A stretch of 64,000 nucleotides of DNA. Origin: Felis catus (lineage: Eukaryota). Positions 19,211 through 25,630 of this stretch are shown in pieces. The notes beneath the pieces were generated by a model. The model had not been told where the DNA came from. It ran no database searches and saw only the letters and a program-made list of their open reading frames with translations. The stretch lies in contig NC_058368.1 in NCBI RefSeq assembly GCF_018350175.1, forward strand, positions 28,894,001 to 28,958,000, read 5' to 3'. Position 1 is the stretch's first letter. The number at the start of each line of letters is the position of its first letter. The translations under genes were made by a program, and so were the position numbers.

Positions 19211-19590
19211 TGCAAACCTTTTTGTCTAATCTTCAAACATGTTTAAATTTTAACTTAAAAAAAAAAAAACCAAGCTAATAGCATCTCTTTAAAATATTTA
19301 ATCTTTTCTGGCTTTCTCAATTTTAAGTTCTTATTCATGTATTTCTGTTCATTGATTGTAATGCTTGAGATTTACTTAAATTTTTTTTCTTGAAAAAACA
19401 CTGCTAATTACTGGGAGATTATTACTTCATTTGCAAAACTGTGATTAATACCGCTGGAGAGAAATCTCTTGTTTGTACATTATTACAGCACCAACTGTGA
19501 GTTTTGAAATGAAGACACACTCATTATGAATTAAGTTCTTGAGATCCTGATATTTTCTTGCTAACCCATCTATTTATCATGTACACATTT

Positions 19591-19632
<42 letters not shown>

Positions 19633-19948
19633 TTGTATTTTTGCTTTATTTCTTTTTTTTTTTTTTTTTTTTTTTATTTTTTATTTTTTTATTTATTTTT
19701 TTTTTTTTATTTATTTTTTTTTTAATATGAAATTTATTGACAAATTAGTTTCCATACAACACCCAGTGCTCATCCCAAAAGGTGCCCTCCTCAATACCCA
19801 TCACCCACCCTCTCCTCCCTCCCACCCCCCATCAACCCTCAGTTTGTTCTCAGTTTTTAAGAGTCTCTTATACTTTGGCTTCTCCCACTCTAACCTGTTT
19901 TTTTTTTTTTTTTTTCCTTCCCCTCCCCCATGGGTTCCTGTTAAATTC

Positions 19949-22900
19949 TCAGGGTCCACATAAGAGTGAAACCATATGGTATCTGTCTTTCTCTGTATGG
20001 CTTATTTCACTTAGCATCACACTCTCCAGTTCCATCCACGTTGCTACAAAAGGCCATATTTCATTTTTTCTCATTGCCACGTAATATTCCATTGTGTATA
20101 TAAACCACAATTTCTTTATCCATTCATCAGTTGATGGACATTTAGGCTCTTTCCATAATTTGGCTATTGTTGAGAGTGCTGCTATGAACATTGGGGTACA
20201 AGTGGCCCTATGCATCAGTACTCCTGTATCCCTTGGATAAATTCCTAGCAGTGCTATTGCTGGGTCATAGGGTAGGTCTATTTTTAATTTTCTGAGGAAC
20301 CTCCACACTGCTTTCCAGAGCGGCTGCACCAATTTGCATTCCCACCAACAGTGCAAGAGGGTTCCCGTTTCTCCACATCCTCTCCAGCATCTGGAGTCTC
20401 CTGATTTGTTCATTTTGGCCACTCTGACTGGCGTGAGGTGATACCTGAGTGTGGTTTTGATTTGTATTTCCCTGATAAGGAGCGACGCTGAACATCTTTT
20501 CATGTGCCTGTTGGCCATCCGGATGTCTTCTTTAGAGAAGTGTCTATTCATGTTTTCTGCCCATTTCTTCACTGGGTTATTTGTTTTTCGGGTGTGGAGT
20601 TTGGTGAGCTCTTTATAGATTTTGGATACTAGCCCTTTGTCCGATATGTCATTTGCGAATATCTTTTCCCATTCTGTTGGTTGCCTTTTAGTTTTGTTGG
20701 TTGTTTCCTTTGCTGTGCAGAAGCTTTTTATCTTCATAAGGTCCCAGTAATTCACTTTTGCTTTTAATTCCCTTGCCTTTGGGGATGTGTCGAGTAAGAG
20801 ATTGCTACGGCTGAGGTCAGAGAGGTCTTTTCCTGCTTTCTCCTCTAAGGTTTTGATGGTTTCCTGTCTCACATTTAGGTCCTTTATCCATTTTGAGTTT
20901 ATTTTTGTGAATGGTGTGAGAAAGTGGTCTAGTTTCAACCTTCTGCATGTTGCTGTCCAGTTCTCCCAGCACCATTTGTTAAAGAGGCTGTCTTTTTTCC
21001 ATTGGATGTTCTTTCCTGCTTTGTCAAAGATGAGTTGGCCATACGTTTGTGGGTCTAGTTCTGGGGTTTCTATTCTATTCCATTGGTCTATGTGTCTGTT
21101 TCTGTGCCAATACCATGCTGTCTTGATGATGACAGCTTTGTAGTAGAGGCTAAAGTCTGGGATTGTGATGCCTCCTGCTTTGGTCTTCTTCTTCAAAATT
21201 CCTTTGGCTATTCGGGGCCTTTTGTGGTTCCATATGAATTTTAGGATTGCTTGTTCTAGTTTCGAGAAGAATGCTGGTGCAATTTTGATTGGGATTGCAT
21301 TGAATGTGTAGATAGCTTTGGGTAGTATTGACATTTTGACAATATTTATTTTTCCAATCCATGAGCAGGGAATGTCTTTCCATTTCTTTAAATCTTCTTC
21401 AATTTCCTTCATAAGCTTTCTATAGTTTTCAGCATACAGATCCTTTACATCTTTGGTTAGATTTATTCCTAGGTATTTTATGCTTCTTGGTGCAATTGTG
21501 AATGGGATCAGTTTCTTTATTTGTCTTTCTGTTGCTTCATTGTTAGTGTATAAGAATGCAACTGATTTCTGTACATTGATTTTGTATCCTGCAACTTTGC
21601 TGAATTCCTGTATCAGTTCTAGTAGACTTTTGGTGGAGTCTATCGGATTTTCCATGTATAATATCATGTCATCTGCAAAAAGCGAAAGCTTGACTTCGTC
21701 TTTGCCAATTTTGATGCCTTTGATTTCCTTTTGTTGTCTGATTGCTGATGCTAGAACTTCCAGCACTATGTTAAACAGCAGCGGTGAGAGTGGGCATCCT
21801 TGTCGTGTTCCTGATCTCAGGGAAAAAGCTCTCAGTTTTTCCCCGTTGAGGATGATGTTAGCTGTGGGCTTTTCATAGATGGCTTTTATGATCTTTAAGT
21901 ATGTTCCTTCTATCCCGACTTTCTCAAGGGTTTTTATTAAGAAAGGGTGCTGGATTTTGTCAAAGGCCTTTTCTGCATCGATTGACAGGATCATATGGTT
22001 CTTCTCTTTTTTTTTGTTAATGTGATGTATCACGTTGATTGATTTGCGAATGTTGAACCAGCCCTGCATCCCAGGAATGAATCCCACTTGATCATGGTGA
22101 ATAATTCTTTTTATATGCCGTTGAATTCGATTTGCTAGTATCTTATTGAGAATTTTTGCATCCATATTCATCAGGGATATTGGCCTGTAGTTCTCTTTTT
22201 TTACTGGGTCTCTGTCAGGTTTAGGAATCAAAGTAATACTGGCTTCATAGAATGAGTCTGGAAGTATTCCTTCCCTTTCTATTTCTTGGAATAGCTTGAG
22301 AAGGATAGGTATTATCTCTGCTTTAAACGTCTGGTAGAACTCCCCTGGGAAGCCATCTGGTCCTGGACTCTTATTTGTTGGGAGATTTTTGATAACCGAT
22401 TCAATTTCTTCACTGGTTATGGGTCTGTTCAAGCTTTCTATTTCCTCCTGATTGAGTTTTGGAAGAGTGTGGGTGTTCAGGAATTTGTCCATTTCTTCCA
22501 GGTTGTCCAGTTTGTTGGCATATAATTTTTCATAGTATTCCCTGATAATTGTTTGTATCTCTGAGGGATTGGTTGTAATAATTCCATTTTCATTCATGAT
22601 TTTATCTATTTGGGTCATCTCCCTTTTCTTTTTGAGAAGCCTGGCTAGAGGTTTGTCAATTTTGTTTATTTTTTCAAAAAACCAACTCTTGGTTTCGTTG
22701 ATCTGCTCTACAGTTTTTTTAGATTCTATATTGTTTATTTCTGCTCTGATCTTTATTATTTCTCTTCTTCTGCTGGGTTTAGGCTGCCTTTGCTGTTCTG
22801 CTTCTAGTTCCTTTAGGTGTGCTGTTAGATTTTGTATTTGGGATTTTTCTTGTTTCTTGAGATAGGCCTGGATTGCAATGTATTTTCCTCTCAGGACTGC

Positions 22901-23773
22901 CTTCGCTGCGTCCCAAAGCGTTTGGATTGTTGTATTTTCATTTTCGTTTGTTTCCATATATTTTTTAATTTCTTCTCTAATTGCCTGGTTGACCCACTCA
23001 TTCGTTAGTAGGGTGTTCTTTAACCTCCATGCCTTTGGAGGTTTTCCAGACTTTTTCCTGTGGTTGAGTTCAAGCTTCATAGCATTGTGGTCTGAAAGTA
23101 TGCATGGTATAATTTCAATTCTTGTAAACTTATGAAGGGCTGTTTTGTGACCCAGTATGTGATCTATCTTGGAGAATGTTCCATGTGCACTCGAGAAGAA
23201 AGTATATTCTGTTGCTTTGGGATGCAGCGTTCTAAATATATCTGTCAAGTCCATCTGATCCAATGTCTCATTCAGGGCCCTTGTTTCTTTATTGATCGTG
23301 TGTCTAGATGATCTGTCCATTTCTGTAAGTGGGGAGTTAAAGTCCCCTGCAATTACCACATTCTTATCAATAAGATTGCTTATGTTTATGAGTAATTGTT
23401 TTATATATTTGGGGGCTCCGGTATTCGGCGCATAGACATTTATAATTGTTAGCTCTTCCTGATGGATAGACCCTGTAACTATTATATAATGTCCTTCTTC
23501 ATCTCTTGTGACAGCCTTTAATTTAAAGTCTAGTTTGTCTGATATAAGTATGGCTACTCCAGCTTTCTTTTGGCTTCCAGTCGCATGATAAATAGTTCTC
23601 CATCCCCTCACTCTCAATCTAAAGGTGTCCTCAGGTCTAAAATGAGTCTCTTGTAGACAGCAAATAGATGGGTCTTGTTTTTTTATCCATTCTGATACCC
23701 TATGTCTTTTGGTTGGTGCATTTAATCCATTTACATTCAGTGTTATTATAGAAAGATACGGGTTGAGAGTCAT
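19949..23773 (-). CDS. LINE-1 ORF2p (1274 aa; APE endonuclease, reverse transcriptase, Cys-rich domain)
   Basis: ATG at 23773 ([18 protein letters not shown]); EN motifs QETH, GDFN, KIDH, SDH; RT motifs QGCPLSP and [22 protein letters not shown] knuckle; no stops or frameshifts. Confidence 0.97.
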
Positions 23774-23823
23774 TGTGATGTCTGTATGATTTATGCTTGT
23801 AGTGATGTCTCTGGGACTTTGTC

Positions 23824-24717
23824 TCACAGGGTCCCCCTTAGGATCTCTTGTAGGGCTGGTTTAGTGGTGACAAATTCCTTCAGTTTTTGTTTGTTTGGGA
23901 AAACCTTTATCTCTCCTTCTATTCTAAATGACAGACTTGCTGGGTAAAGGATTCTCGGCTGCATATTTTTTCTGTCTAGCACCCTGAAAATCTCGTGCCA
24001 ATTCTTTCTGGCCTGCCAAGTTTCAAAAGAGAGATCAGTCACGAGTCTTATAGGTCTCCCTTTATATGTGAGGGCACGTTTACCCCTTGCTGCTTTCAGA
24101 ATTTTCTCTTTATCCTTGTATTTTGCCAGTTTCACTATGATATGTCGTGCAGAAGATCGATTCAAGTTACGTCTGAAGGGAGTTCTCTGTGCCTCTTGGA
24201 TTTCAATGCCTTTTTCCTTCCCCAGTTCAGGGAAGTTCTCAGCTATGATTTCTTCAAGTACCCCTTCAGCACCTTTCCCTCTCTCTTCCTCCTCTGGGAT
24301 ACCAATTATGCGTATATTATTTCTTTTTAGTGTATCACTTAGTTCTCTAATTTTCCCCTCATACTCCTGGATTTTTTTATCTCTCTTTTTCTCAGCTTCC
24401 TCTTTTTCCATAACTTTATCCTCTAGTTCACCTATTCTCTCCTCTGCCTCTTCAAGCCGAGCTGTGGTGGTTTCCATTTTGTTATGCATTTCGTTTAAAG
24501 CGTTTTTCAGCTCCTCGTGACTGTTCCTTAGTCCCTTGATCTCTGTAGCAAGAGATTCTCTGCTGTCCTGTATACTGTTTTCAAGCCCAGCGATTAATTT
24601 TATGACTATTATTCTAAATTCACTTTCTGTTAAATTATTTAAATCCTTTTTGATCAGTTCATTAGCTGTTGTTATTTCCTGGAGATTCTTCTGAGGGGAA
24701 TTCTTCCGCTTGGTCAT
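23824..24717 (-). CDS. LINE-1 ORF1p (297 aa; coiled coil, RRM, CTD RNA chaperone)
   Basis: ATG at 24717 ([10 protein letters not shown]...); motifs [34 protein letters not shown] at 23826-23824. The track start at 24756 is a non-ATG extension. Confidence 0.96.
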
Positions 24718-25194
24718 TTTGGATAGTCCCTGGCGTGGTGAGGACCTGCAGGGCACTTCCCCTGTGTTGTGGTGTATAACTGGAGTTGGTGGGCGGGGCC
24801 GCAGTCAGACCTGATGTCTGCCCCCAGCCCACCGCTGGGGCCACAGTCAGACTGGTGTGTGCCTTCTCTTCCCCTCTCCTAGGGGCGGGATTCACTGTGG
24901 GGTGGTGTGGCCCGTCTGGGCTACTTGCACACTGCCAGGCTTGTGATGCTGGGGATCTGGCGTATTAGCTGGGGTGGGTAGGCAAGGTGCACGGGGGTAG
25001 GAGGGGCAGGCTTAGCTCGCTTCTCCTTAGGTGATCCTCTTCAGGAGGGGCCCCTCTTCCGTGGGCCTCTCGTCTGCGTTTGGCTCCGTCGACTCCGTTC
25101 TGCTAATCCTCTGGCGGTTTTCTGGGTTATTTAGGCAGGTGTAGGTGGAATCTAAGTGATCAGCAGGACGCGCGGTGAGCCCAGCGTCCTCCTA

Positions 25195-25208
25195 AGCCGC
25201 CATCTTGC
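25195..25208 (-). promoter_or_regulatory. YY1-type site at the L1 5' terminus (CAAGATGGCGG)
   Basis: Minus strand reads GAGATTGAAGCGGCAAGATGGCGGCTTAGG; AAGATGGCG is the YY1 motif typical of mammalian L1 5' ends. Confidence 0.8.
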
Positions 25209-25630
25209 CGCTTCAATCTCCATGTACACATTTTCTGAAGTAAATCTGGATTTGTGAAAAGCATGAGTGAGATTTAGTTATGCACAATGTAAGACAATTT
25301 TCAACAAAACACTCTTGACATGTAAATTTTATGAAAGTAAATGGACTTTAAAAATTATCAATCCTCTTAATTTCAAGTATATAATAAAACAGAACCATGG
25401 TTAAAATAGCCTGTGTATAGAAGGGGATGGTTTTAAGATAAAATCTTCAAAGAGACTCCCTTCTGCATTACATAATTGAAATATTTTCATAAAACCATCT
25501 ACTACTTTAAATTCTGTATTAAGGAAAACCATTTAGTATCTTTATGGTGTCTCTTAAGTATTTCAATATTGTCATCTTCCTTTCGGTTTACCACTATATG
25601 TTTTATTCCCAGGTTGTCAAGAAGCTGCTG

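Follow-up and report, generated by a model that had tools for sequence, protein, structure and literature searches.

The DNA analysed here, referred to as the window, is a stretch of 64,000 nt from the genome of Felis catus. It carries on its minus strand a whole L1 insertion of 5,627 nt (25220..19594) with a short 5′UTR, designated short or spliced form in the following; all further features are likewise located on the minus strand. The insertion is enclosed by the target-site duplication AGAAAATGTGTACATG, whose 5′ copy (16 nt, 25236..25221) can be read directly and is identical to the 3′ copy (19593..19578), the first A of the latter being ambiguous with the tail. The 5′UTR comprises 503 nt (25220..24718) and is composed of two parts. 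The first one, an exon-1 equivalent of 168 nt (25220..25053), ends with ...CCCACGGAAGAGG, which long copies continue with GTAGGAAGGG. It contains, 13 nt from the 5′ end, the motif CAAGATGGCGGC (25207..25196), which is a putative YY1 box, named after the one in human L1. The second part, an exon-2 equivalent of 335 nt (25052..24718), starts with GGCCCCTCCTGA, which in long copies is preceded by ...CCCGCTGCCACAG. Both parts meet at the exon-exon junction 25053/25052, where 429 nt of the full-length 5′UTR are absent.

The UTR is followed by two open reading frames, and no others of at least 150 aa are present within the element. ORF1 (297 aa, 24717..23824) encodes a protein with the L1 RBD-like and dsRBD-like domains (PF02994, E 1.7e-25; PF17490, E 3.5e-24), and ORF2 (1,274 aa, 23773..19949) encodes a protein with endonuclease (PF03372, E 6.2e-24) and reverse transcriptase (PF00078, E 9.6e-49) domains, all four matches being far above the curated cut-offs of Pfam. 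Further downstream, the 3′UTR together with a first A-rich tail containing TAAA-type interruptions (19948..19653), a 23-nt non-A tag separating two A tracts (19652..19630), and a terminal pure poly(A) tract of 36 nt (19629..19594) complete the element. Its membership in L1 is evident from the ORF1p and ORF2p domains, the target-site duplication, and the 3′ poly(A), all of which are present. A search of the whole window against Rfam at the gathering threshold yielded no matches. The initial annotation of this region had described a true 5′ terminus with a YY1-like motif and an adjacent target-site duplication, a 5′UTR of 503 nt, a total length of about 5.6 kb, and two intact ORFs; all of these features were recovered at the positions it gave, and both frames are open and carry L1 Pfam domains.

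The junction GGAAGAGG|GGCCCCTCCTGA, represented by the 20-mer GGAAGAGGGGCCCCTCCTGA (25060..25041), occurs once in the window, compared with zero occurrences expected from shuffled sequences. When the genome (2.43 Gb, 71 contigs) was searched with the 503-nt UTR, all 40 scored matches were contiguous short copies with 95-100% identity. In keeping with a felid L1, 74% of the sampled words of a long-form 5′UTR are also contained in a sequencing run labelled 'feline metagenome'. The long form was captured by two patterns that diverge from the short form at the junction. The 17-mer GGCCCACGGAAGAGGGH, consisting of the end of exon 1 followed by a letter other than G, occurs at 2,035 places in the genome; its last letter is T in 99 of the 100 matches listed, i.e. 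the unspliced end of exon 1 reads ...GGAAGAGG|GT in these. The pattern HGGGCCCCTCCTGAAGAGG, in which a letter other than G precedes the start of exon 2, occurs at 509 places and has A in first position in all of the 100 matches listed. Loci were then compared individually. Among the 90 loci fetched, the short copies showed a gap of exactly 0 at the junction (30 of 30), and the other 60 records comprised 57 with 425-443 extra nt, two with larger segments (635 and 688 nt), and one without exon 1; deletions of any other length were not seen at this point. The segment in the long-form loci measures 419-443 nt, or 429 nt in young copies, and lies exactly at window position 25053|25052. Full-length family members are thus interrupted at this point, and the case that they might be contiguous here, which the initial annotation had considered, does not apply. 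In young copies, the segment has a G+C content of 65% and contains 31 of the 53 CpGs of the 932-nt UTR. An instructive example is L035, an ordinary full-length copy which shares the 5′ end and ORF1 with the window copy and possesses the CpG-rich 429-nt middle part of the 5′UTR that the window copy lacks.

The borders of the segment have the appearance of splice sites. Long copies read CCACGGAAGAGG|GTAGGAAGGG ... CCTCCCGCTGCCACAG|GGCCCCTCCTGA, the segment itself reading GTAGGAAGGG...CTGCCACAG, and GT..AG borders are present in 62 of the 65 long-form locus records. The three exceptions are old copies in which an indel or a late start of the alignment has shifted the boundary that we called, with AG|GGCCC visible directly adjacent. 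The flanks GGAAGAGG|GTAGGAAG ... CCCGCTGCCACAG|GGCCCCTCCTG, which the initial annotation had given, are indeed the letters found in full-length copies of the same genome, and its proposal of an exact GT-AG intron after a first exon of 168 nt is borne out by these records. The donor AGG|GTAGGA after nt 168 matches the consensus MAG|GTRAGT at six of nine positions, a score that is also reached by two unused GT sites in the UTR. The acceptor CACAG|GG is preceded by a pyrimidine tract and by a branch-point-like CTGAC, the A of which is located at -20.

Taken together with the copy numbers and trees described below, these borders make it very probable that the window element is the felid counterpart of the human intra-5′UTR SpIREs (spliced integrated retrotransposed elements), i.e. 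that it was retrotransposed from an RNA from which an intron of 429 nt had been spliced. According to this mechanism, the full-length L1 5′UTR of about 932 nt would hold a working intron (429 nt, G+C- and CpG-rich), and the L1 transcript would occasionally be spliced from the AGG|GTAGGA donor to the CACAG|GG acceptor. The spliced RNA would retain both ORFs and could therefore be copied into DNA by its own proteins, and its recopying by target-primed reverse transcription would have given rise to the window element. We infer that the cut is made on the RNA by the spliceosome. In the RNA data, which consisted of Logan contigs, the contigs of four libraries (X6, X7, X10, and X21) that fall on L035:1348-2400 contained no donor/acceptor joint but were too short to weigh for or against splicing; in X6, the sole plain transcriptome, coverage of this copy did not begin until 16 nt ahead of the acceptor.

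A different explanation would be that a single DNA deletion, caused for example by replication slippage, occurred in a master element which was then amplified as a short subfamily, the GT..AG borders being a coincidence. The 40 scored UTR matches, all short and 95-100% identical, do look like a subfamily at first, and the borders share a microhomology. This microhomology, however, comprises only 2 nt (G|G), and since no other deletion size was seen in the 90 loci either, a chance deletion is unlikely. In addition, given three equivalent placements of the cut, coincidental GT..AG borders would by our own arithmetic be expected in about 3 of 256 cases, and the branch-point-like motif and the pyrimidine tract are correctly placed. 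In view of these points and of the tree tests described below, a one-time deletion is a very improbable origin of the short form.

The spliced form is rare relative to the long form and occurs at many places. The genome-wide count of the junction 20-mer, which the initial annotation had suggested as a check, gave 51 exact places, with 5′ flanks that differ between copies, and a total of 131 places when up to two mismatches were allowed (51, 43, and 37 at 0, 1, and 2 mismatches, respectively), compared with 20 places for the reversed sequence used as control, so that the number of real copies is roughly 95-110. Variants with one mismatch, such as ...CCTCCCGA, show the letters with which exon 2 is written in older subfamilies, which indicates that older families also made spliced copies. 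Related to the 2,035 exact long-form donors, the spliced share ranges from 2.4% for exact junctions to about 5%, a rough estimate in that the patterns differ in length. In a subfamily defined by a single marker (107 matches), four of the 100 matches listed are short. Target-site duplications were examined for the window copy only, and not all of the places represent separate events: the pair L025 and L026 on contig C27 has 1,045 nt of flanking sequence in common and consists of duplicates of one event. As a separate observation, five exact-junction copies of like orientation lie less than 0.4 Mb apart (G000:C37:43478823-43862858), an arrangement that probably represents a segmentally duplicated array rather than five insertions.

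With respect to the ancestral form, the most diverged copies, which are 78-90% identical to the window copy, hold the segment and are basal on the trees, which makes the long form the ancestral one. The opposite polarity, in which the short form would be the original one and the long form would have gained an insertion of 429 nt, is already contradicted by the fact that all of these most diverged copies hold the segment and that the short copies fall within groups of younger long copies, and it has next to no probability left.

The number of origins was addressed with two trees. The first one was calculated from 1,234 columns of sequence that both forms share, namely the two exon equivalents and 737 nt of ORF1, and included 67 rows (27 short and 40 long). 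Left out were nine records that covered these columns incompletely, 13 that repeated an element already included, one record without exon 1, and L082, which represents another locus and was dropped since it is identical to L035 over the 700-nt key used for de-duplication. On this tree, the label short or long changes 18 times, compared with a mean of 21.3 for shuffled labels, and 39-41 of 500 shuffles gave a number as low; on the second tree with 79 rows (30 short and 49 long), it changes 20 times. A single clade of all 27 short rows was rejected by the AU test with p = 3.5e-6, and a single clade, set against the long rows, of the 21 short rows outside the leader group described below with p = 0.004, the groups in both cases being defined by the trait and the split by leader having been chosen after the data had been seen. 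As is common for L1, the resolution of the trees is low: strong support is limited to four of 64 and eight of 76 inner branches, which by themselves force only two to three origins. Moreover, the long forms are represented by 49 rows compared with 2,035 pattern matches (about 2%), and 41 of these rows come from one contig. The 79-row tree is ladder-like, and short copies occur in at least three of its successive grades, each of which also includes long relatives. As a single origin is rejected and the short copies are dispersed over the tree between long relatives, the same cut was made repeatedly, in the manner expected of splicing. A recurrent and precise cut on varied templates fits what the splice sites predict, and is a poor fit to a one-off DNA deletion amplified from a master element.

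Multiple origins could also be mimicked by repeated deletions after insertion, or by one deletion that was spread by gene conversion or template switching, since polyphyly alone fits recurrent splicing and recombination between short and long templates alike. Such a process is nevertheless hardly credible, because the 90 loci display no other deletion sizes at this point, the microhomology is limited to 2 nt, the borders are canonical splice sites, and the duplication and tail of the window copy show that it was inserted as a unit. Recurrent splicing thus remains the preferred explanation, and the SpIRE-type interpretation already put forward in the initial annotation is supported by the GT..AG borders, the 51 junction places, and the evidence for more than one origin on the L1 tree.

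The window copy itself is young. Its end branch measures 0.0018-0.0019 changes per column, corresponding to about two private changes in 1,234 columns, and this short branch, the identical duplications, the pure A tail of 36 nt, and the open frames indicate a very recent insertion, for which we infer an age of about one million years or less from general mammalian substitution rates. Nearest to it are the long-form L035 and two short copies, L002 and L003, which form a group with the window copy (SH-aLRT 93%). Of the sampled rows, L035 is the one most similar to the window copy over the 1,234 shared columns and the one reached by the shortest path on the tree. Judged from these sequence relationships, the window copy is most likely a very young, first-generation product of a long-form source. 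L035 (G000:C1:18.09 Mb) and the second long-form copy L082 (G000:C1:56.90 Mb), which as mentioned above are identical over 700 nt, differ at one variable column, and with such near-identity the family looks to have been recently active.

As an alternative, the window copy might belong to a second generation, in which case an ancestor would have been spliced and the window copy would have been made from the transcript, itself not spliced, of a short element in the DNA, implying that spliced L1s of felids are still mobile. We consider this unlikely for the window copy, although, with about 2% of the long forms sampled, second-generation copying may occur to a small extent. The window copy retains the 5′ terminus, the YY1-like box, and both ORFs, its group includes the short copies L002 and L003, ORF1 is open in nine of the 30 short loci (compared with six of the 13 long loci with a whole ORF after de-duplication), and no source element with the 3′ tag of the window copy is present in this assembly. 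The same group, however, holds the long-form L035, the closest copy by both measures given above, and the sole state shared by L001 and L002 and lacking in L035, a C, turned out to be common, with 636 occurrences genome-wide that extend to long copies; L001 and L002 were therefore rejected as a parent/child pair. Furthermore, only two states recur in at least three short rows without appearing in any of the 49 long rows, one of them shared by L022, L027, and L029 and the other one by L009, L012, and L014. The former was rejected as the mark of a short-only lineage, since it occurs 107 times with 96 long copies among the 100 matches listed, and it therefore marks a mostly long subfamily. Among the 30 short and 49 long rows, no sign of a lineage founded by spliced copies was found, and the first-generation origin from a long-form source is retained here as the preferred one.

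Elements of this kind are known from human L1. Larson et al. (2018; PMC5860796) define SpIREs, which account for about 2% of full-length primate-specific L1s, and describe them as promoter-poor and generally dead ends; the human splice donor is proposed there to be kept because it overlaps a transcription-factor site that the promoter needs. The felid element resembles the human SpIRE97/622 in that both ORFs are kept and an internal piece of the 5′UTR bounded by its own donor and acceptor is missing, and in that ordinary retrotransposition has placed such copies at many loci. Spliced copies also make up a few percent of the 5′-complete copies in both cases (about 2% in human according to PMC5860796; 51 exact junctions versus 2,035 donor matches in the felid genome), and neither the human SpIREs nor the felid spliced copies show signs of descendant lineages. 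The two differ in the position of the sites, the felid donor being located at nt 168 and the intron measuring 429 nt compared with 97/622 in human, and in the host lineage. The 5′UTR of felid L1 is presumably unrelated in sequence to that of primates, as the initial annotation also has it. For the human SpIREs, the loss of promoter and the spliced RNA are reported as shown, whereas their felid counterparts are deduced. Of the 53 CpGs of the 5′UTR, 31 are missing from the window copy, which by analogy with the human SpIREs has probably also lost most of its promoter.

No report on spliced L1 copies in cats was found in the open-access and bioRxiv literature, in agreement with the remark in the initial annotation that this had not been described for the species. 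The window element extends this kind, known from human L1, to a carnivore. The donor and acceptor have been kept through felid L1 subfamilies that differ by more than 10%. Together with the similar spliced share of a few percent and the lack of signs of descendant lineages, this suggests that L1 replication is generally and recurrently burdened by intra-5′UTR splicing, which would then be no peculiarity of primates, and carnivore L1 offers an independent system for asking why L1 leaders retain splice sites. There is also a practical aspect for annotation: some felid L1s that would be counted as full-length and intact are, as in the present case, devoid of 46% of the 5′UTR. For an older cat assembly, the number of full-length intact L1s given in L1Base 2 (PMC5210629) is one.

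A part of the felid copies carries additional sequence at the 5′ end. A non-L1 leader of about 400 nt with a fixed 5′ border is located upstream of the L1 start in eight of the 30 short loci (L017, L019, L021, L023-L026, and L030; reference copy L026:1091-1498) and likewise on the long-form copies L091-L098, all eight of which carry the intron. In the genome, 521 first-look candidates for the leader were obtained, and the 40 that were scored gave 45 matched pieces with 87-100% identity, among which there are several structural variants. On the 79-row tree, the copies with leader make up the grade immediately beneath the young clade that lacks it, a topology from which this L1 line seems to have gained and later lost a 5′ module. 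The spliced share differs strongly between the two groups: 13 of 36 leader-bearing pattern matches are spliced (36%) and 23 are long, whereas about 2-4% of the leaderless ones are spliced (p = 6e-13 in Fisher's exact test, in which the leaderless group comprised 40 short and 2,012 long copies, the patterns not being the same in the two groups). Short and long forms are intermixed among the 16 leader rows, with seven label changes. The leader-bearing short copies have no private substitutions in common, so that a more efficient splicing of RNA with leader is likelier than a spliced lineage that breeds.

A precedent for a mobile spliced L1 with foreign upstream sequence exists, as a human SpIRE is reported to have regained mobility from the host RAP1GDS1 promoter (bioRxiv 10.1101/2025.02.02.635956), and the leader of some felid spliced copies may be compared with it. 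Unlike in the RAP1GDS1 case, the felid leader is also found on long copies, marks a whole L1 stage, and is not accompanied by private substitutions among the short copies, and it therefore does not resemble the rescue of one spliced element. Capture of the leader as a promoter by one spliced element was accordingly rejected, given the 23 long forms among the 36 matches, the intron in the eight long copies fetched, and the intermixture of both forms. It is still conceivable, if rather doubtful, that the spliced L1s of felids are not all dead, in that the 503-nt UTR, in which the YY1-like box at the 5′ terminus is kept, may retain enough promoter for further rounds and the leader may drive transcription of spliced copies, which would go on multiplying, or may raise splicing about tenfold. 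If this were true, the architecture of the 5′UTR would set the share of L1 output that is diverted into promoter-poor copies, a self-limiting mechanism which could be tuned by hosts or elements. In any case, copies with and without leader differ so much in the spliced share that they provide a natural experiment on the control of L1 splicing.

The two ends of the window copy deserve mention. Apart from the window, the only genome match at up to one mismatch to the 23-nt tag (19630-19652) is a site on contig C15 (L100, G000:C15:54910590-54910800), which was rejected as the progenitor in this assembly as no L1 adjoins it. At this site, the tag includes AATAAA, and its end at a CA about 16 nt further on resembles a poly(A) site. 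Two readings are conceivable, namely that the tag is a 3′ transduction from a progenitor L1 which is absent at C15 in this assembly, or that it results from a template switch from the end of a cellular mRNA. At the opposite end, the window copy starts with GAGATT (25215-25220), 6 nt upstream of the start of most young copies; 12 of the 40 scored matches to the 503-nt UTR start at query position 7, and a few long copies reach positions 3-5, so that the transcription start seems to be heterogeneous.
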